Positions 18,198 to 26,912 of a DNA stretch of 26,989 bases are shown here, in pieces. The notes under the pieces are model-generated. The model saw only the letters and a program-made list of their open reading frames with translations. It searched no databases and had not been told where the DNA came from. The position numbers were made by a program, and so were the translations under genes. The DNA lies in the NCBI GenBank assembly GCA_050486425.1, contig JBJHDG010000001.1, positions 1 through 26,989 on the forward strand, given 5' to 3'. Origin of the DNA: Pseudomonadales bacterium. GTDB lineage: Bacteria > Pseudomonadota > Gammaproteobacteria > Pseudomonadales > Azotimanducaceae. Numbering within the stretch: position 1 is the stretch's first letter; every line of letters starts with the position of its first letter.

Positions 18198-18701
18198 GTG
18201 TTGGAAGATCTGCATGAAAAACCCGGCAGCGTCGTGGTACGCACTGTGCTGGCGGTGTACCGGGAAATGGAACGGCTGGCCCGGGATGAGACCATGACAC
18301 TGGCCCAGTACCGGCTGTTGGTATTCCTATTACGCGGCCCCAGACGCACCGCCGAGCTGGCGGTGGCCGCCTTGGTTGCCAAACCCAGCATCACCCCCAT
18401 CGTGGCCAGCCTGGAAAAACAGGGCTGGGTGACCAGATCCACGGATCCAGAGGATCAGCGGGTTTCCAATGTGCGCATCACCGACCAAGGGCGCAAGGCC
18501 ATGGCCGCCTTTGAGGCCCATCTGGAATCCGCCCTGGCCGACCTGATCGGGCGCGACGTGGTGAACCAGGCCAACCAGGGCCTGCTACCCATGTACCATG
18601 CCCATTCCAAAGCCCGGGAGGAAAGCTTCCTGCGCTGGGCAACTTACCGCATGGGCACCCCATTGACAGCGCCGGACGATGCAGCGGAGGAACGCGGATG
18701 A
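18198..18701 (+). CDS. MarR-family transcriptional regulator
   Basis: MTLAQYRLLVFL...AELA...KPSITPIVASLEKQGWVTRSTDPEDQRVSNVRITDQG winged HTH. GTG start. Divergent from the esterase. Confidence 0.85.
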   Translation: MLEDLHEKPGSVVVRTVLAVYREMERLARDETMTLAQYRLLVFLLRGPRRTAELAVAALVAKPSITPIVASLEKQGWVTRSTDPEDQRVSNVRITDQGRKAMAAFEAHLESALADLIGRDVVNQANQGLLPMYHAHSKAREESFLRWATYRMGTPLTAPDDAAEERG

Positions 18702-19312
18702 ACTCAGACAACGTCTACCAGGTTGACCCGCTGCAGCATCGACACCCGGAGCAACCGGCACTGGCGCCCATGTTTCTGCAACGTTGGTCACCGCGGGCCA
18801 TGTCCGGCGCAGCGGTCAGTCAGCAGGACCTGGAGGTGCTGCTGGAAGCGGCACGCTGGGCACCCTCCAGCAACAATGCCCAACCCTGGCGTTTCATTTA
18901 CGGCCACAGAGACACGCCAGCCTGGCAACCCTTGTTCGATCTGCTGCGTCCTGGCAACCAGCTGTGGGCTCATCAGGCTGGCGTACTCATACTCATCATT
19001 GCGCGCACTGCCTTTGAGCGCGACAACGGACCATCACCCACCTACGCCTTCGATACGGGTGCAGCCTGGATGAGCCTGGCGTTGCAGGCGCGGGCACTGA
19101 ATCTGGTGGCTCATGGGATGCGCGGCTTTGATGCCGAGCGGGCGACAATCCAGTATCAGATACCCGCTCTGTACCAGGTACAGGCCATGGTGGCCGTAGG
19201 TCATCCTGGGCAGATCGCAGACCTGCCCGCGGAGCTGCAGACCAGAGAAGTCCCATCACAGCGCAAGCCATTGGCCGCACTGATCAGTAACGGCCAGTTT
19301 GTCTGGGACTAG
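18698..19312 (+). CDS. Nitroreductase family protein
   Basis: RWSPRAM, LLEAARWAPSSNNAQPWRF, FDTGAAWMSLALQARALNLVAHGMRGFD. ATGA overlap with marR. Confidence 0.92.
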   Translation: MNSDNVYQVDPLQHRHPEQPALAPMFLQRWSPRAMSGAAVSQQDLEVLLEAARWAPSSNNAQPWRFIYGHRDTPAWQPLFDLLRPGNQLWAHQAGVLILIIARTAFERDNGPSPTYAFDTGAAWMSLALQARALNLVAHGMRGFDAERATIQYQIPALYQVQAMVAVGHPGQIADLPAELQTREVPSQRKPLAALISNGQFVWD

Positions 19313-19698
19313 CGGGTTTCGGCCAGGTGTCTTTCGCGTTTTTCGTAACGTTCCTGGGCTTCTACCGACAATGTTGCAATGGGTCTGGCTTCAAGGCGCG
19401 GAATGCCAATAGGCTCTCCGGTTTCCTCGCAATAGCCGTAACTACCGTCCTCGATGCGATTTAATGCCTCATCGATCTTCTTCAGCAGTTTTCGTTGCCG
19501 GTCACGCACCCGCAATTCAATGGCGTGGTCACTTTCAATAGTGGCGCGGTCGGCTTCATCACCGATCTCCCGGTTCGATTCACTGCGCAGGCCTTCAATG
19601 GTGGCGTCAGCTTCCTGAAGGATTTCCTGGCGCCAGTTGAGCAACTTGTTTTTGAAATACGCCAGTTGCTCCGGCGTCATATAGGGTTCCTGCTTCAT
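19309..19698 (-). CDS. dksA: RNA polymerase-binding transcription factor DksA, one-Cys (probably non-zinc) type
   Basis: EPYMTPEQLAYFK, coiled-coil tip GDEADRA (DxxD), ELRVRDRQRKLLKKIDEAL, GSYGYCEETGEPIGIPRLEARPIATLSVEAQE. Confidence 0.95.
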   Translation of the reverse strand: MKQEPYMTPEQLAYFKNKLLNWRQEILQEADATIEGLRSESNREIGDEADRATIESDHAIELRVRDRQRKLLKKIDEALNRIEDGSYGYCEETGEPIGIPRLEARPIATLSVEAQERYEKRERHLAETR

Positions 19699-19906
19699 CG
19701 CCTGGTATCTTCTCGCCTCTTAGGTTGCGCCTATTATTGCGCTTGGGTGGATGGTTACGCCGCTACGTTGGTTGGCAGCGGCTGCGGAATATGACCACGG
19801 CCACGCTGCCCTGTCCAGTTAGAAACAGATTTTTTTCGCGACCACAACAACAGTAGCCAGTGCTTTGAAATTGTCCAGGCAACAGGCTGGGCAAGCCAGC
19901 CCGGCA

Positions 19907-19923
19907 GTGTTATTTTATATCAC
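19907..19923. promoter_or_regulatory. Putative Zur box upstream of zrgA
   Basis: GTGTTAT-TTT-ATATCAC, one mismatch from TGTTAT-N3-ATAACA, ending 32 bp before the start of a zinc-uptake-family gene. Confidence 0.7.
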
Positions 19924-19955
19924 CCATCAGAGTCCGGTGCTGGAAGGGGTTCCAC

Positions 19956-20588
19956 ATGCTATGCCAATCTGTACGCAACCTGATGCCTGCGGTTCGCCCT
20001 GATTTATGCCATGCGTTGGCGCTCACAGCCCTGCTGCTGCCACTAACCACCTGGGGCGGCGCCGGACATAGCCATGAGCACGGTGTTGCAACGTTGAACC
20101 TGGCGTTAAGCCCATACCAGGTGCACTTGGAGTTTCTCAGCCCGGCCTACAACCTGCTGGGATTTGAACATGCGCCACAGACGCAGGCCCAGCAAACAGC
20201 TGTTAACCAGATGCTGACAGCACTGGCGGATGGTCATCTGTTCAATTTGCAAGGTGGCGGCTGCATCCTGGAAAGCCATGCGCTGGAAACCGGCTTTACC
20301 AAGGCGGATATGCCACGCCACGGCAATGAGCCGGGGCATGAACATAAACATGGTCATGCCCATCACGATCATCAGCACCTGCATGACGAACCCACCAACG
20401 CAGCCGGGTTTCATGACTTGCTGTTGCTGCTTGGTTACAACTGCGACGCCGTACCGGAACGGCTATCCATAGCGCCGCTGCTGGCGCAGTTTCCGGCCAT
20501 TGCACAGCTTCAGGTCCAGGTGGTGGGTATGCAGGGTCAGCGGGCACAGCAGTTGACGCCAGCGCAGCCAGTGATCAGGCTGCGCTAG
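19956..20588 (+). CDS. zrgA: ZrgA-family (DUF2796) His-rich periplasmic zinc uptake protein
   Basis: Signal-like N-terminus, HSHEHGVATLNLA, SPAYNLLGFEHAP, His tract at 20319-20384 (10 His in 22 residues), Cys pair GC...YNC. Confidence 0.82.
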   Translation: MLCQSVRNLMPAVRPDLCHALALTALLLPLTTWGGAGHSHEHGVATLNLALSPYQVHLEFLSPAYNLLGFEHAPQTQAQQTAVNQMLTALADGHLFNLQGGGCILESHALETGFTKADMPRHGNEPGHEHKHGHAHHDHQHLHDEPTNAAGFHDLLLLLGYNCDAVPERLSIAPLLAQFPAIAQLQVQVVGMQGQRAQQLTPAQPVIRLR

Positions 20589-20594
20589 CTGGCA

Positions 20595-21110
20595 TCAATC
20601 GTCCCACTCATAGATTTCAATACGCTCGGCCAGCATGCTGTACCCGGCATGAGCCAATTCTGACTCGGAGTGCTGCACCTGCAAACGGCCGGTAATCCAG
20701 AAGGCATTCCACTCCGGCTCATCCAGCACCTGAGGCTGCGCCAGCCGCACATGCACGATCTGATTGGACGGCGGCGGCGGCACATGGATGCAGGCGCCAA
20801 GGTACGGCACGAATAAAAACTCTGCCACACGCCGACCATCCATTTTCAGCGGCACCACGAAACCCGGCAGGCGCACCAGCAGGTTATCCAGGCCGGGCAC
20901 CACAGGCGCGTCCGGCGCCAGCTGCTCCATCATCACCATCTCGAAGTAGTCGTGCTCCATGATATCCGGCATGGGGGGCAACCAGTCTTCCGGCATCATG
21001 TCATCCCAACTGATTTCCAGTGGCGCCTCCGCCAGTACGGGCGAGGCCAGCAGACAGCACAGCAGCAGCACCCAGATAGACATGCCTGCTTGGGTTTTCC
21101 CATTCGACAT
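20595..21110 (-). CDS. DUF3299-family exported protein (ZrgD-like)
   Basis: Signal peptide, ISWDD, VRLPGFVVPL, FLFVPYLGACIHVPPPPSNQIVHV, WITGRL. Start may be the second Met (MSIWV). Confidence 0.85.
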   Translation of the reverse strand: MSNGKTQAGMSIWVLLLCCLLASPVLAEAPLEISWDDMMPEDWLPPMPDIMEHDYFEMVMMEQLAPDAPVVPGLDNLLVRLPGFVVPLKMDGRRVAEFLFVPYLGACIHVPPPPSNQIVHVRLAQPQVLDEPEWNAFWITGRLQVQHSESELAHAGYSMLAERIEIYEWDD

Positions 21111-21133
21111 CGGTAACTCAACTCCGGCCCAAA

Positions 21134-22390
21134 CTAAAGGCGCATAGACAGTCCATCAGCCAACGAATTCCGCAAGGCGCGCCAGGCCGGGACCAGACCG
21201 ATCAGAAACGCACCAGCCACCACGGCCAGCAGCATATACAATTCCCGCGGTGTGGGCGCCTGCAGCGCCAGATAAATGCCAAATCGCGCCTCCACCCAGC
21301 CCTGGGCCAGCGCCATGCCGGCATAGGCCAACAGCCAGCCTGTCACAGCACCACACAGCCCCAGCAAGGTGCTTTCCGCCAGCAACAGGGCAAAGATATA
21401 ACGCGGTTTCGCCCCCAACGCGCGCAGCACGGCCATTTCACGGCGCCGCTCATTCAAGCCGGCCAGAATGCCGATCAGCATGCCGGTCAGTCCGGTCAAC
21501 ACCACCATGGCAGCCACCATCAGCAAGGCCCGCTCGGCAATCCGCAGCAATCCCCAAAGCTCCTGTAGCGCAGCTGCAGGCAGAATGGCCAGCAGGGGTT
21601 CATCGCGAAACTGATTGATGGCGCGTTGCATACGAAAAATTTGCATGGGCTCATGCATACCCAGCAGGAAAGCCGTAATCGCTTGGGGTTGCAGGTCTGC
21701 GGCGACCAACTCATCCGCCTGGGGCAAGGCGCCAGGAATCCGGGTACCGGATTCCCAACCAATATGGATCGCCTCCATGCCCGCCAGACTGATATGCACA
21801 CCCTGATCCACCGGCGTCCCCGTATGCGCCAGGATGCCAACCACCTGGAACGGCAGGTTATCGTGCGCTGCAAAACTGCCATGACCCAAGCCGTGGCTGA
21901 TAACAATCTCCTGCCCCAGGCGATAACCCAAGGCTTCGGCCACGTTGGCACCCAGCACCACATCCAACACTTCCACAAAGGGGCCACCCTGGGCAAAGTG
22001 CAGCGCGCGATTCTGGCCGTAGCGGTAGTGGGTAAAATAATCGCCGGTGGTGCCAATCACCCGATAGCCACGATGAGAATCACCCAGACTGAGCGGAATG
22101 GACCAGGCAACATGGGGATGGCCCTTGATACGTTCGTAGCTGGCCCAGCTGATATTGTTGGTGGCGCTGCCCATACGAAAGACAGAGTACAGCAGCAGCT
22201 GAATCTGGCCCGTGCGTGCGCCCACAATCAAATCGGCGCCCGACACCGTATTCAGAAAACTGCTGCGGGTTTCCGTACGCACCTTTTCCACCGCCAACAG
22301 CAAAGCCACAGCCAACGCGATGGCCAGCACGCTAAGCACCAGATTTCCGCGCCGGTCCCAGATACTGGCCAGAATCAGCCGCGTCAGCAT
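21134..22390 (-). CDS. MacB/FtsX-type ABC permease (ZrgC-like)
   Basis: TM1, large periplasmic domain (GADLIVGARTGQIQLLLYSVF, PLSLGDSHRGYRVIGT), then ERRREMAVLRALGA and three TM helices. Confidence 0.88.
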   Translation of the reverse strand: MLTRLILASIWDRRGNLVLSVLAIALAVALLLAVEKVRTETRSSFLNTVSGADLIVGARTGQIQLLLYSVFRMGSATNNISWASYERIKGHPHVAWSIPLSLGDSHRGYRVIGTTGDYFTHYRYGQNRALHFAQGGPFVEVLDVVLGANVAEALGYRLGQEIVISHGLGHGSFAAHDNLPFQVVGILAHTGTPVDQGVHISLAGMEAIHIGWESGTRIPGALPQADELVAADLQPQAITAFLLGMHEPMQIFRMQRAINQFRDEPLLAILPAAALQELWGLLRIAERALLMVAAMVVLTGLTGMLIGILAGLNERRREMAVLRALGAKPRYIFALLLAESTLLGLCGAVTGWLLAYAGMALAQGWVEARFGIYLALQAPTPRELYMLLAVVAGAFLIGLVPAWRALRNSLADGLSMRL

Positions 22391-23100
22391 GAAGCTTCCT
22401 CAAAGGGTGCCTGGTTCAATGCCCGCATATCCAATATCTGATCAAAATGCTGCGCCAACCCCGGATCATGGCTGACAAACAACAAGGTGGTGCCGGCACT
22501 GTCACAGGCCGCCAGCAACAGCTCCATAAAGCGCTGGCGGGCATCAGTATCCAGCGCTGAGGTGGGCTCGTCTGCAATCAGCAGCGCCGGCGCTCCCATC
22601 AATGCCCGCGCCACCGCCACCCGCTGTTGCTGGCCGATGCTCAACTCCCGGGGTGTGCGCCGGCGCAGGTTATCCGTGGGCAGCCCCAGCTGCGCCAGTA
22701 ACGCCTGGGCCTGGGCCACCGGACCACCCGCAGCGCGGCTGCGGCGTAAGCGGGAAAAGTGACAAGGTAGCAGCAGGTTATCCAACAGCGACAGATAGGG
22801 CACCAGATTGAATTGCTGAAAGACGAACCCTATGTGATCAGCCCGAAAGGTATCCCGGGCCGGGCCACCCAGCGCAGCCAGCGACTGGCCCAGCACCCGC
22901 AGCTCACCACAGCTGGGCGTCAGCACCCCACCAATCAATCCCAGCAAAGTGGACTTGCCACTGCCACTGGGGCCGCGCAAAAACACCCGACTGCCCGCGG
23001 CTACCGACAACGCCGGCACCGACAACACCTCCGGCTGCCCAGGCTGCCAGCGAAACCCCAACGCCTCAATTTCAATAATGGCCGCGCGCTGATCAGACAC
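22384..23100 (-). CDS. ABC ATP-binding protein, LolD/MacB-type (ZrgB-like)
   Basis: Walker A GPSGSGKST, IGFVFQQFNLVPYL, signature LSIGQQQRVAVARAL, Walker B LIADEPTSALD, VSHD. Probable GTG start at 23100, since the ORF track's 23157 start runs into the promoter region. Confidence 0.9.
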   Translation of the reverse strand: MSDQRAAIIEIEALGFRWQPGQPEVLSVPALSVAAGSRVFLRGPSGSGKSTLLGLIGGVLTPSCGELRVLGQSLAALGGPARDTFRADHIGFVFQQFNLVPYLSLLDNLLLPCHFSRLRRSRAAGGPVAQAQALLAQLGLPTDNLRRRTPRELSIGQQQRVAVARALMGAPALLIADEPTSALDTDARQRFMELLLAACDSAGTTLLFVSHDPGLAQHFDQILDMRALNQAPFEEASC

Positions 23101-23176
23101 TCTGTGACCCCTGCTCCCTGGGGAAGCCCTCACAACGCCTGATGGTATAACAACCACCCCCGCAGGTCCCCATCAC

Positions 23177-23191
23177 TGTTACCTTGTAACA
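23177..23191. promoter_or_regulatory. Putative Zur box 1 in the divergent intergenic region
   Basis: Perfect 6-3-6 palindrome TGTTAC-CTT-GTAACA. Confidence 0.72.
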
Positions 23192-23211
23192 CGAGCCAGT
23201 AATAATATAAC
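23184..23211 (+). promoter_or_regulatory. Candidate sigma70 promoter for the barrel-znuABC-like operon
   Basis: TTGTAA (23184-23189), 16-bp spacer, TATAAC (23206-23211). Both hexamers lie inside the two putative Zur boxes. Confidence 0.4.
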
Positions 23212-23216
23212 ATTTC
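23198..23216. promoter_or_regulatory. Putative Zur box 2 in the divergent intergenic region
   Basis: AGTAAT-AAT-ATAACATTTC. The right half matches the extended gammaproteobacterial Zur consensus ATAACATTTC. Confidence 0.7.
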
Positions 23217-23272
23217 TGCCGAGGCCGAGAGCCGCCACTTTTTCCGCATCAACCATGAATCAGGGGATACCC

Positions 23273-24613
23273 ATGAAAACAGCAAACCGCCTTATTCCCG
23301 GCGTGCTGGCGCTGGCACTGGCAGCGCCAGCAACTTCACTGCAGGCCCAGCCAGAAACGGCAGCCGGCGCACAAAGCAGCAATCTCTTTAATCCCGCTAT
23401 GTCGGTCATCATTAATGGCGTCTACTACAGCGACAACCGTCATGGTGAAGGTGCCGGCCTGACACTGGCGGCGGATGGCTTTGCCGGCGGTCACAGCCAT
23501 GGGCATGATCATGGCCAGGGTCATGGCAGCCTCGAGCGCGGCTTCAACCTGCAGGAAGTGGAATTCGCCTTTTCCGCCAGCGTTGATGCCTATTTCGACG
23601 CCTTTGTGATGGCCGCACTGACGGACGGTGAGCTGGAACTGGAAGAAGCCTTTGTCACCACCCGCAACCTGCCAGCCGGTGTACAAGCCAAGTTTGGTAA
23701 GTTCCTGAGCGATGTGGGCTATATCAACAAACAGCATCCTCACAGCTGGCATTTCGTCGAGCGCCCTTTGGTCAACGCGCTGCTGTTTGGTGATCATGGT
23801 CTGCAGGAGTTGGGTGTGCAGCTCAGTTGGTTGGCGCCCACCGACAATTATCTGCGCCTGGGTGCAGAAGTGCTGCAGGGCGAATCCAACGGCATTGCCC
23901 AGTACCTGGGTGAAGCCGAAACCATAGCCGGTACCGCGCGTATTCTTAGCGAAGTCAGCGGTCCACGCCTGTTTACCGGCTTCGCCAAGTACGCACCCGA
24001 TCTGGGTTTTGATCATGCCGTACAACTGGGTTTTTCTCTGGGCTATTCCCGCAGCTATCAAAACAGCGTGGAACACAGCACCAGATATGAAGATCATGAT
24101 GGCACTGCCCAATTCTACGGTTTCGACCTGGTGTACAAACACACCCCAGGCGGTCGCACGTACGGCCAGTGGCTGGCCCAGTTTGAATATTTTCACCGCA
24201 AGCGCAGCATTGACCGCCGGGATGTTTATTTTGCCTGTCATCCTGCCGATCTTGACTGCACGGACCCAGGCAATGAATGGCAGATTGGCGATGTGCGCAA
24301 TGAACAGTCCTTCAGCGAAAAACAGGATGGTTACTATCTGGACGTGCTTTATGGCTTTGCGCCTCGCTGGTACGGCGGTCTGCGCTGGGAGCAGGTGGGC
24401 CTCACCAACAAATCCGGACGCGGCAGTGGCGAAAGCTGGGATGATAGCCGTCGTCTGTCCGCCGCACTAAGCTTTGCGCCTACCGAATTCTCCCGTCTGC
24501 GATTGCAACTGGCGCGCGCTGATGTCGCTGTTGATGACCACCGGGACAAACTCAATCAGGTTTTCCTACAATTCCAAATGAGCCTGGGTGCCCATGGCGC
24601 CCACGAGTTTTAA
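23273..24613 (+). CDS. Zinc-regulated outer-membrane beta-barrel protein (family often labelled 'zinc-regulated TonB-dependent receptor')
   Basis: Signal peptide, FNPAMSVIING, His tract HSHGHDHGQGH, FNLQEVEFAFSASVDAYF, GKFLSDVGYINKQHPHSWHFVERP, C-terminal QFQMSLGAHGAHEF. ATG 23273 has the better RBS; 23255 is an alternative start. Confidence 0.8.
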   Translation: MKTANRLIPGVLALALAAPATSLQAQPETAAGAQSSNLFNPAMSVIINGVYYSDNRHGEGAGLTLAADGFAGGHSHGHDHGQGHGSLERGFNLQEVEFAFSASVDAYFDAFVMAALTDGELELEEAFVTTRNLPAGVQAKFGKFLSDVGYINKQHPHSWHFVERPLVNALLFGDHGLQELGVQLSWLAPTDNYLRLGAEVLQGESNGIAQYLGEAETIAGTARILSEVSGPRLFTGFAKYAPDLGFDHAVQLGFSLGYSRSYQNSVEHSTRYEDHDGTAQFYGFDLVYKHTPGGRTYGQWLAQFEYFHRKRSIDRRDVYFACHPADLDCTDPGNEWQIGDVRNEQSFSEKQDGYYLDVLYGFAPRWYGGLRWEQVGLTNKSGRGSGESWDDSRRLSAALSFAPTEFSRLRLQLARADVAVDDHRDKLNQVFLQFQMSLGAHGAHEF

Positions 24614-24625
24614 TCGGGGCACATC

Positions 24626-25522
24626 ATGAATCGCTTATGGTTGCTGCGACTAATCCTGCTACCCGTCCTGCTACCTGGTTTGAGCCTGGCGGAGACGCCC
24701 CTGCGCGTGGCCGCCACCACCCCCAACATGGCCATGCTGGCACGCACAGTCGGTGGCTCAGCAGTGACCGTGCAGACACTGGCACCTGGCGATCGGGATG
24801 TGCATTACCTGGAAGCCCGGCCCAGCATGCTGGCGCACCTGCGCCGCGCAGACTTGGTCGTGGCGGTGGGTGCCGATCTGGAAGCGGGCTGGCTGCCTGT
24901 TGCCCTGCAACGGGCCGCCAATCCCGCCATTCAGCCGGGACGCAGCGGCTATCTGGCGCTGGCGGAACATCTGGATCTGCTGGCAGCAGACCAACCTGCG
25001 GATCGCGCCCTGGGTGATGTGCACCCCCTGGGCAATCCACATTTTTACTATGATCCGCAGCGCATGGCGCTGGCAGCCCAGCTGCTGGCAACACGCCTGG
25101 GTGAGTTACGCCCTGAGACCGCCGCAGACTTTCAGCAGCGGGCAGACGCCTTTGCCCAACTCATCAACAGTCAACTGCCCCACTGGCAAACCCGCAGCGC
25201 CCAGGCACCAGGCGCCGTGCTCTACCATAAAAATGCGGTCTATCTGCTGGAGCGATTTCAGATCCCGGTCCTGGCCTATATAGAACCCCTGCCCGGTATT
25301 CCCCCCAGCGGTCGCCATCTGCGCCACCTGGTACAGCAGTTGCGCTCCCGCCAAGGCGTGATTCTGCATCTGGTGTTCGAACCCGCTCGGGGACCCGCGT
25401 TTCTCAGTCGCCAACTGGGTTGGCCGGTGCATGTCATGCACGGCGAAGTTGCGCCGGACGGCAGCGCTGAGGATTATGTCGCCCTTATCGATGGCTGGAT
25501 CACCGCCTTGGAGCCACGTTGA
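24626..25522 (+). CDS. Metal ABC transporter substrate-binding protein (ZnuA/TroA cluster A-I)
   Basis: Signal peptide, VAATTP, DVHYLEARPS, GADLEAGWL, GDVHPLGNPHFYYDP, LYHKN. Three His positions fit a Zn-type site. Confidence 0.9.
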   Translation: MNRLWLLRLILLPVLLPGLSLAETPLRVAATTPNMAMLARTVGGSAVTVQTLAPGDRDVHYLEARPSMLAHLRRADLVVAVGADLEAGWLPVALQRAANPAIQPGRSGYLALAEHLDLLAADQPADRALGDVHPLGNPHFYYDPQRMALAAQLLATRLGELRPETAADFQQRADAFAQLINSQLPHWQTRSAQAPGAVLYHKNAVYLLERFQIPVLAYIEPLPGIPPSGRHLRHLVQQLRSRQGVILHLVFEPARGPAFLSRQLGWPVHVMHGEVAPDGSAEDYVALIDGWITALEPR

Positions 25523-26109
25523 GCGTTACACCGCAGCCCTCACTTACGGCAGCCACCACCTTACTGACGCTGCATGACCTGTGCGCCGGCTACCGCGCGC
25601 CCGTGGTGGGCCCCATCTCCCTGCAGATTCAGGCCGGAGAGATTGTTGGCTTGAGTGGCGTCAATGGCAGTGGCAAAACCACACTGCTGAAAGCCATCAC
25701 CGGCCAGGCCAGAATTTTTGCTGGCAGCGTACAGCGGCAGCCCGGCCTGCAACTGGCGTATCTGCGCCAGCACCCGGAACGACCACCGGAACTGCCACTG
25801 ACTGGCAGCGAAGTCATCGCGCTTGCCCAAGCAACGATCGCCCAACAGCCGGAGCGCCTGGCGGCCCTATCCCATCTGTGTCTGGATGAAATGAGTGGCG
25901 GCCAGTATCAGTTGCTGAAAACCTGGTGCGCACTGGCTGGTCCGGCGCAGTTGGTGTTGCTGGATGAGCCCACCAACAATCTGGATCAGGATGCCATGGA
26001 TCTGCTTCTGACCCAGTTGCGCACGCTGGCGCCGACGCGGGCGGTGCTCCTGGTAAGTCACGAACAGCTCTTTTTGACCAACGCCTGTTCCCGGCTGGTG
26101 CAGCTGTGA
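25519..26109 (+). CDS. Metal ABC transporter ATP-binding protein (ZnuC-like, short)
   Basis: GVNGSGKTT, MSGGQ, LLDEPTNNLD, VSHE. TTG start overlaps the upstream TGA, with GGAG 5 nt upstream. Confidence 0.87.
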   Translation: MSVTPQPSLTAATTLLTLHDLCAGYRAPVVGPISLQIQAGEIVGLSGVNGSGKTTLLKAITGQARIFAGSVQRQPGLQLAYLRQHPERPPELPLTGSEVIALAQATIAQQPERLAALSHLCLDEMSGGQYQLLKTWCALAGPAQLVLLDEPTNNLDQDAMDLLLTQLRTLAPTRAVLLVSHEQLFLTNACSRLVQL

Positions 26110-26912
26110 ACCTGCTCTGGGACCCATTGTTCCGCATCCCCCTGGCCACCGGCCTGATGTTGGCACTGCTACTGCCGCTACTGGGCGCCGGGCTGCGCCT
26201 GCGTCAGCAATGGCTGGCGGGACTGGGGCTGACGCAAATGGCGGCTGCTGGCGCCGTCTTGGCCGCGCTGCTGCATCTGCCCTTGCTGCTGGGTGGCGGC
26301 CTGACCGCGTTGGCGGCCGCAGCACTGCGGGTGCTCAGCGGCGAACCCCGCAACGAACACTACGCACTGATGCTGCTGGTGGGCTGGGCGGGCGTGCTGC
26401 TGTTGGCAATGCAGGGTCATCATGCGGATGCCCTGGTGGATACAGTGCTGAATGGACAACTGTATTTTACCGACAGCGCCCAACTGATGGGCGCCAGCCT
26501 GGTAACGCTGACAGTGCTGGCGGCTGGCACCTGGCTCAGCCGTCGCCTGCTGCTGTCACGACTTTTCCCTGCGCATTTTCAGGCCAATCAGCAGTCGGTT
26601 TGGCCCCACGAATTCACCTTCGACCTGCTGCTGGTGGCCGGGTTGGTGCTGGCCGTAACCAGCATGGGTGTGATGGCCAGTTTCGCGCTGCTGTTCGTCC
26701 CGCCCTGGGTGGCGTTCCGCCTGGCCCGGGGGCTACGCATGACGCTTTGGCTCTGCGTGGGGCTGGGTAGCGCTGCCTATCTGGCAAGCTTCGCGATCGC
26801 CTTGTGGTTGGATTTGCCCTTTGGCCCGGTGCTGGTTGCCGCCTGCTGTGCGCTGGCGCCACTGCGCTGGTTGGGTCGTATTGGATGGATTGGTCGGGAC
26901 GGCAGGATTTGA
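26106..26912 (+). CDS. Metal ABC transporter permease (ZnuB-like)
   Basis: Multiple hydrophobic helices, GLTQMAAAG, LNGQLYF, GVMASFALLFVP. GTGA overlap with the ATPase gene. The last codons fall inside the tRNA remnant. Confidence 0.85.
   Translation: MNLLWDPLFRIPLATGLMLALLLPLLGAGLRLRQQWLAGLGLTQMAAAGAVLAALLHLPLLLGGGLTALAAAALRVLSGEPRNEHYALMLLVGWAGVLLLAMQGHHADALVDTVLNGQLYFTDSAQLMGASLVTLTVLAAGTWLSRRLLLSRLFPAHFQANQQSVWPHEFTFDLLLVAGLVLAVTSMGVMASFALLFVPPWVAFRLARGLRMTLWLCVGLGSAAYLASFAIALWLDLPFGPVLVAACCALAPLRWLGRIGWIGRDGRI

Follow-up and report, generated by a model that had tools for sequence, protein, structure and literature searches.

Is a DksA with a single cysteine, encoded divergently from a zinc uptake gene across a Zur-like box, a zinc-sparing back-up under Zur control, or is it a second DksA with a promoter of its own that came to lie beside a zinc locus? 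This question was raised by a stretch of DNA of 26,989 nucleotides, termed the window in the following, which belongs to a metagenome-assembled genome (G000, 2.58 Mb, 420 contigs, 93.65% complete). Sparing of the metalloproteome under Zur control is classically illustrated by zinc-free DksA paralogues, and because of this another such DksA adds little alone. The key paper on DksA2 and Zur is reportedly that of Blaby-Haas from 2011. Cysteine-depleted DksA paralogues in Zur clusters, one-Cys forms included, have been known since 2009–2011. A study of 2009 predicted Zur-regulated paralogues without the C4 motif for gamma- and betaproteobacteria (PMC2770081), the Zur-regulated paralogue of Pseudomonas aeruginosa was characterised (PMC9213440, PMC4850274), and it was found that the two-Cys, zinc-free DksA2 can stand in for DksA (PMC4850274, PMC9213440). 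In Rhodobacter sphaeroides the one-Cys DksA RSP2654, which has the pattern C, T, T, A, acts like DksA with ppGpp and complements an Escherichia coli dksA mutant; alongside it occurs RSP0166, a short C4 relative that does not complement (PMC4010833).

For the window, an explanation was arrived at that seems fairly probable as a whole: the gene would encode a zinc-free second DksA, it would have its own promoter, and its adjacency to the zinc genes would go back to a rearrangement at the species level.

The one-cysteine DksA and its companions in the genome

The gene and the two motifs that define its product are the following.

19309–19698, minus strand: one-Cys DksA paralogue of 129 aa (TIGR02420, Pfam, AF2 model)
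19357–19431, minus strand: degenerate zinc-finger region C90-E-E-T93 ... S111-V-E-A114 (translation)
19543–19560, minus strand: coiled-coil tip D47-E-A-D50-R-A52, DxxDxA (translation and alignment)

The translation showed that CEET-x17-SVEA replaces the canonical CxxC-x17-CxxC. C90 to A114 map exactly to 19431–19357, C90 is the sole cysteine of the protein, and the C4 zinc site is absent, while the DxxD tip is intact. In profile searches the protein matched TIGR02420 (dksA) with 149.7 bits at a cut-off of 115.5, and the Pfam families PF21157 (DksA_N) and PF01258 (zf-dskA_traR) with 98.8 and 50.6 bits, respectively. D47, D50, A52 and C90 were invariant in an alignment of 46 sequences. Motif, coordinates, tip and family all read as described in the first-pass annotation, and its observation was therefore confirmed: the gene product is a Cys-depleted member of the DksA family.

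The AF2 model (pLDDT 88) has helices at residues 9–41, 48–84 and 112–128, and the predicted architecture is that of DksA, with a long coiled coil, a globular domain and a C-terminal helix. It aligned to 4IJJ, 1TJL and 7KHI with TM values of 0.82–0.84. The top solved match in Foldseek was DksA2 4IJJ (TM 0.84, 47% identity), with E. coli DksA in second place (TM 0.82), and a sequence search of solved structures returned 4IJJ with an E value of 1.2e-27 and 1TJL with 1.9e-27. 4IJJ is P. aeruginosa DksA2 (PA5536), the Zur-repressed, zinc-independent paralogue, and 1TJL is E. coli DksA with its canonical Cys4 zinc finger. T93 and A114 fit the DksA2-type finger, as CQET...CIEA of 4IJJ aligned to CEET...SVEA. 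The ligand pattern C, T, S, A is that of the RSP2654 type, in which only the first cysteine is kept. [quoted passage not shown] It would be a zinc-free secondary-channel factor with an intact DxxDxA tip, and its globular domain would fold without the Cys4 zinc site, as is the case for P. aeruginosa DksA2 and R. sphaeroides DksA.

The first-pass annotation had named a second, four-Cys dksA as the gene to be searched for, and a sole dksA as a result that would speak against a back-up copy. A profile search of the contigs revealed three members of the DksA family. A canonical four-Cys dksA (173.5 bits, CxxC-x17-CxxC, tip DPADRA) is located on contig G000:C46, directly upstream of a gluQ-like gene for a class-I tRNA synthetase of the Glu/Gln type. 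The one-Cys gene is therefore an extra copy, and the genome has the coexisting four-Cys DksA that is typical for DksA2-type systems. It is proposed that the one-Cys DksA would be kept as a second copy alongside the canonical protein.

The third member, on contig G000:C62 (L003 1429–1794, minus strand), is a C4-type protein of 121 aa with the tip DFAEQA (DxxExA). Glu replaces the second Asp of the tip, and the protein can be likened to RSP0166, the R. sphaeroides relative that does not complement (PMC4010833). The four-Cys dksA lies within an open frame of 374 aa (L001 1465–2589, minus strand), in which about 230 Lys/Ala/Pro-rich, histone-H1-like residues precede the DksA part; residues 18–72 of this frame have a weak match to the Rv3852 family. 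Long open frames ahead of dksA were observed in many genomes of the same family, and the sole DksA of one of them (G007, L108 7992–8894, 300 aa) has a similar tail.

The dksA–zrgA junction and the control of dksA

The features around dksA are listed in the order of their positions.

18198–19312, plus strand: marR–nitroreductase gene pair, convergent with dksA (Pfam)
19788–19817, minus strand: candidate sigma-70 promoter of dksA (TGGACA, 18 nt, CATATT), about 90 nt before the ATG (weak consensus match)
19908–19922, no strand: Zur-like box TGTTATTTTATATCA at the zrgA promoter (pattern search; aligned to the box of the sister species)
19956–20588, plus strand: gene for a His-rich zinc uptake protein of the ZrgA family (PF10986, 126.7 bits)
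20595–23157, minus strand: zrgBCD-like operon (Pfam; kept on contig C36 of the sister species G001 with 72–74% amino acid identity)
20595–21110, minus strand: DUF3299 gene of this operon (Pfam)
21134–22390, minus strand: gene for an FtsX/MacB-type permease of this operon (Pfam)
22384–23157, minus strand: gene for an ABC ATPase of this operon (Pfam)
23177–23212, no strand: two Zur-like boxes (23177–23191 and 23198–23212) in a divergent promoter region (pattern search)
23255–26912, plus strand: operon of a gene for a 452-aa exported protein and ZnuA-, ZnuC- and ZnuB-like genes (Pfam ZnuA, ABC_tran, ABC-3)

It was verified that dksA diverges from the PF10986 gene across the box at 19908–19922, and the distance of about 210 bp between box and dksA start that had been noted before was measured as 210 bp to the ATG. 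The distance to the ATG of zrgA is 34 bp. The box, TGTTATTTTATATCA, has one mismatch to TGTTAT-N3-ATAACA. The window contains three Zur-like boxes, compared with 0.29 expected, and three were reached in one of 100 shuffles. With up to two mismatches the pattern had 18 matches genome-wide, five of which were outside long ORFs, and three of these five were in the zinc locus. A Zur-like gene of the Fur family is present on contig G000:C132; it matched NF008646 with 124.7 bits, the best match but below the cut-off of 167 bits. The zinc locus looks genuine, and the Zur-like box at 19908–19922 appears to be genuine as well. The 452-aa exported protein (23255–24613, plus strand) had no match in Pfam or NCBIfam. 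In two Thiocapsa genomes, the first gene of the znuACB operon encodes a His/Asp-rich homologue with 39% identity (L020 3870–5516, minus strand), and the 452-aa protein may be a zinc-regulated outer-membrane component.

The junction of dksA and zrgA was bridged without differences by a contig of 1,818 nt (18888–20705) from a mine-tailings run that was assembled independently and is probably from the same sample. The only sequencing run listed as containing the stretch was a DNA run from mine tailings; no RNA run was listed. On its downstream side, dksA (minus strand) converges with the nitroreductase gene (18698–19312, plus strand) so closely that the 3′-ends overlap by 4 nt, and no terminator was found between the two genes. 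This side is conserved. The block of O-methyltransferase, esterase, marR, nitroreductase and dksA genes is kept in the sister species G001, the order dksA–(nitroreductase)–O-methyltransferase is kept in relatives at 74–78% identity, and in all relatives dksA is followed by nitroreductase and/or O-methyltransferase genes.

The placement of dksA beside a Zur-boxed locus is not conserved. In G001 it is a gene for a COG0523 (CobW-family) GTPase that is divergent from zrgA (L162 41–1243, minus strand, on G001:C36), and a perfect palindrome, TGTTATGTTATAACA, precedes zrgA (L162 1278–1292) and aligns with the box of the window at 19908–19922. The dksA gene of G001, an 86% identical copy, is located elsewhere. 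Its contig C38 runs into contig C424 through an identical overlap of 121 nt, and C424 carries a small Q-rich ORF and a homocysteine S-methyltransferase gene; no box was found within 1.6 kb upstream of this dksA. A counterpart of the C424 upstream region was not found in G000. Conversely, a COG0523 gene was not detected in G000, where the one match of PF02492, at a contig end, reached no more than 27.8 bits, and tblastn revealed no COG0523 remnants in the dksA–zrgA spacer or elsewhere in this genome. Relatives at 74–77% identity have a gene for an M50/CBS peptidase upstream of dksA and no box, and this peptidase was not found in G000. A further relative at 78% identity (L111, contig JBJHBO010000382.1) has a Zur-like box, TGTTATAATATATCG, at L111 15–29, 313 bp upstream of its one-Cys dksA and at the very end of the contig. 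Since G001 and the relatives differ upstream of dksA, the dksA–zrgA junction is specific to this species. The distance of 34 bp to zrgA, the alignment with the box of G001, and the boxless dksA genes of G001 and the relatives at 74–77% identity indicate that the box belongs to zrgA and is probably its operator.

Only one promoter-like site was present between 19250 and 20000, namely the candidate at 19788–19817, about 100 bp from the box. Hexamers resembling a −10 element were seen at a similar distance in relatives, but they aligned poorly. The upstream regions of dksA from six relatives had a mean column identity of 48%, and because of this poor alignment the argument for a conserved promoter is weak. 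An Rfam scan of 19200–20100 with E values up to 1 had no match, and thus neither a riboswitch nor a known leader RNA was indicated in the spacer of 257 bp. Besides 19908–19922 no further Zur-like box was found near dksA, and a search of the window for a second box type without spacer, TGTTATAACA, yielded none in the dksA–zrgA spacer.

In the explanation that is favoured here, dksA would have been inherited together with its downstream block of nitroreductase and O-methyltransferase genes in a narrow lineage, and most likely uses its own promoter about 90 nt ahead of the ATG. A species-specific rearrangement would have put the Zur-controlled zinc-uptake island beside it, at the position that is occupied by the COG0523 gene in the sister species, and the Zur box would serve zrgA as operator. 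Several points count against this. The promoter candidate is a weak consensus match, and the genome is an incomplete MAG in 420 pieces. The leftward COG0523 promoter of G001 must overlap the box, and if it was kept it reads toward dksA. Furthermore, Cys-depleted dksA genes beside Zur-boxed zinc genes recur too often to be dismissed.

The alternative is that the one-Cys DksA is a Zur-controlled zinc-sparing back-up, a serious if somewhat doubtful possibility. Zinc limitation would free the box, a leftward promoter would read dksA via a leader of about 190 nt, and the zinc-free DksA would replace or supplement the four-Cys DksA, all as a result of a recent promoter capture. Such back-ups are an established concept in gamma- and betaproteobacteria (PMC2770081) as well as in P. 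aeruginosa (PMC9213440). The genome offers the four-Cys partner, the box between the divergent genes and the Zur-like regulator on G000:C132, and the compact COG0523–box–zrgA region of G001 shows a leftward Zur-controlled promoter at the box. Other lineages provide precedents. Two Thiocapsa genomes have both a four-Cys and a one-Cys dksA; the one-Cys gene diverges from the operon of the 452-aa protein and znuACB, and the box TGTTATG(C/T)TATTACA is located 34 bp before its ATG (L020 5911–5925, L019 5911–5925). The Zur-like box upstream of dksA in the 78% identical relative (L111) also speaks for this alternative. In G025, a genome of the same order, a one-Cys DksA is encoded in a classic island with genes for a TonB receptor, HisI and COG0523, as well as FolE2, a gamma-carbonic-anhydrase-like protein and an amidohydrolase. 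Cys-depleted copies adjoin COG0523 in G307, G391 and G298 and lie among perfect boxes in G238, and thus the type recurs in Zur/COG0523 clusters, with one-Cys forms in G025 and G307.

However, in the window 210 bp separate the box from the ATG, the sole promoter-like site follows the box at a distance of about 100 bp in the direction of dksA, and a second box near dksA is absent. The dksA gene of G001 is boxless within 1.6 kb upstream, and no box precedes those of the relatives with the M50 peptidase. Of 14 two-copy genomes in the gammaproteobacterial sample, ten had neither zinc genes nor boxes within about 8 kb, as far as the contigs permitted. Even in Thiocapsa, the only promoter-like site that overlaps the box points away from dksA. 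Other zinc-sparing paralogues were not found in G000, an incomplete assembly; the same incompleteness, rather than biology, is reflected by the missing L31 (PF01197). Zur control of the one-Cys dksA in this genome is therefore given somewhat less than an even chance. If it is real, it most likely runs through the leftward promoter used by COG0523 in the sister species. It is tempting to speculate, although this is rather unlikely to be correct, that G000 is a snapshot of a zinc-free paralogue entering the Zur regulon by promoter capture, in which a standing, constitutive one-Cys dksA moved to the COG0523 site at a bidirectional Zur-controlled promoter. If true, dksA would gain a second, zinc-repressed promoter with a long leader, and the capture would be independent of the Pseudomonas DksA2 and Chromatiaceae lineages. 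As a separate observation, one contig of another genome (G369:C31, L158 2639–3422) carries a canonical-type and a Cys-depleted dksA in divergent orientation, about 110 bp apart.

A third view disregards the zinc locus next door as incidental and turns to the conserved side of dksA. The four-Cys finger would be a redox-sensitive thiol switch, and the one-Cys copy, resistant to oxidants and thiophilic metals, would keep stringent control going under oxidative, nitrosative and heavy-metal stress in mine tailings, regulated with the marR–nitroreductase genes or independently of them. This is quite unlikely. It agrees with the conserved linkage, which is to nitroreductase, MarR and O-methyltransferase genes and not to zinc genes, with the origin of the genome from a mine-tailings metagenome, with the missing zinc context in many two-copy genomes, and with the report that cysteine and zinc content set the threshold of DksA for sensing reactive species (PMC4850274). 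However, dksA is convergent with the marR–nitroreductase operon and not a member of it. In addition, C90 is invariant across the type, and therefore the one-Cys protein is not thiol-free.

Origin and distribution of the cysteine-depleted type

The one-Cys DksA is 50% identical to the resident four-Cys copy, and 62–69% identical to DksAs of Chromatiaceae, Achromatium, Thioalkalivibrio, Competibacteraceae and many Alphaproteobacteria. The CTSA pattern was found in 104 of the 120 best homologues, and the same motif occurs in DksAs of Betaproteobacteria (Azoarcus, Thauera, Accumulibacter), where it is the norm. A Cys-depleted DksA was strongly matched in 42 of 400 evenly sampled gammaproteobacterial genomes (about a tenth), and about half of the 29 such genomes that were examined pair it with a second copy of canonical-type score. 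Of 24 further genomes of the family, which cover 23 other genera, only the same-genus G001 had this copy, at 86% identity. The Tex protein of G000 had at most 71% identity to MAGs with the labels Steroidobacteraceae, Pseudomonadales, Burkholderiales or Gammaproteobacteria, and thus assigns the genome no more closely than to Gammaproteobacteria. The designation as an alpha-type DksA, which had been proposed at first, thus holds as a description of the motif; it is too narrow as a class, as the motif is also found in Betaproteobacteria and in about one in ten of the gammaproteobacterial genomes sampled.

Maximum likelihood trees, from which the P. aeruginosa DksA2 sequence was absent, placed the Cys-depleted DksAs in a single clade apart from the four-Cys gammaproteobacterial DksAs (support 100/98–99). 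Within this clade a beta-like branch splits first, and an alphaproteobacterial clade (100/98) lies among many gammaproteobacterial lines. The window protein and six metagenomic relatives (seven rows) form a lineage of their own (98–100/98–99), which is separate from the beta-like branch with the Zur-cluster copy of G025 and from the G298/G391/Thiocapsa group. The one-Cys copy falls within this large Cys-depleted clade, whose members come from Alpha- and Betaproteobacteria and from many Gammaproteobacteria. A recent in-lineage duplicate of the resident four-Cys dksA that lost its cysteines was also considered as an origin. Forcing the window lineage together with the resident four-Cys clade was rejected (AU p = 0.0005), and together with the separate clade this excludes such a duplicate. 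The phylogeny that the first-pass annotation had called for places the window lineage outside the alphaproteobacterial clade (100/98); a sister relation to this clade was not rejected (AU p = 0.34), and the trees neither establish nor rule out an alphaproteobacterial donor.

A recent horizontal gain from an alphaproteobacterium, with dksA carried on or with the zinc island, is highly improbable: the higher identity of alphaproteobacterial DksAs (62–69% versus 50% for the resident copy), the AU value of 0.34, by which joining the window lineage to the alpha clade is not rejected, and the restriction of the copy to G001 among 23 other genera of the family would be in line with it, but the window lineage is excluded from the alpha clade at 100/98, one-Cys DksAs of Thiocapsa, Achromatium and Halochromatium are equally or more similar (67–69%), the GC content is unremarkable (0.564 for 19001–20000 versus 0.56–0.64 along the window), all relatives link dksA to the left-hand block and not to the zinc island, and neither a tRNA gene nor an integrase was seen. 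A half tRNA gene that had been suspected at the contig end was not confirmed, as ARAGORN found no tRNA gene in the window.

One further protein of the same family of genomes was observed in the trees. The sole DksA of G007 (L108 7992–8894) keeps two cysteines (CEET...CLEA), while its N-terminal half is canonical-like. It takes a basal position in the Cys-depleted clade, beside four-Cys proteins and grouped with the Zur-linked copies of G238 and G307, and may be a hybrid or transitional form.

Comparison with known DksA systems

The useful point of the analysis is comparative. Cys-depleted DksA is widespread in Gammaproteobacteria, zinc contexts occur in several unrelated lineages, and many other paired copies are without a link to zinc. 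G000 and its sister G001 differ exactly at the dksA junction and thus represent a natural experiment, with the question whether adjacency to a Zur box suffices to draw a gene into the regulon.

With E. coli DksA (1TJL) the window DksA shares family, fold and tip motif (TM 0.82, 42–43% identity, E 1.9e-27). In contrast to it, the window DksA is without the Cys4 site and has a shorter N-terminus (129 aa versus 151 aa), and its gene is not beside gluQ, whereas that of the resident four-Cys copy is.

The likeness to RSP2654 of R. sphaeroides extends to the ligand positions. Both proteins keep only the cysteine that is equivalent to C114 of E. coli, have Thr at the position of C117 and Ala at that of C138, and retain an intact DxxDxA. 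They differ at the third position, which is Ser in the window DksA and Thr in RSP2654, and in their role, as RSP2654 is the main DksA of R. sphaeroides, whereas the window DksA is an extra protein beside a canonical copy. In addition, the window lineage was placed outside the alphaproteobacterial clade in the maximum likelihood trees.

P. aeruginosa DksA2 differs from the window DksA in several respects. The window DksA has one cysteine and not two, with Ser at the third ligand position, and it lies outside the beta-like branch that contains the classic Zur-cluster copy of G025; the YGWC and RLL.RP signatures of DksA2 resemble that branch, although DksA2 of P. aeruginosa was absent from the tree. 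The window locus is without the companions COG0523, FolE2 and PyrC2, its box is not directly upstream of dksA, and within the genus the adjacency is not kept. Nevertheless, DksA2 is the best match among solved structures in both structure and sequence. It shares with the window DksA the Thr at the second and the Ala at the fourth ligand position and the intact DxxDxA, and both have a four-Cys DksA partner and adjoin Zur-boxed zinc genes.
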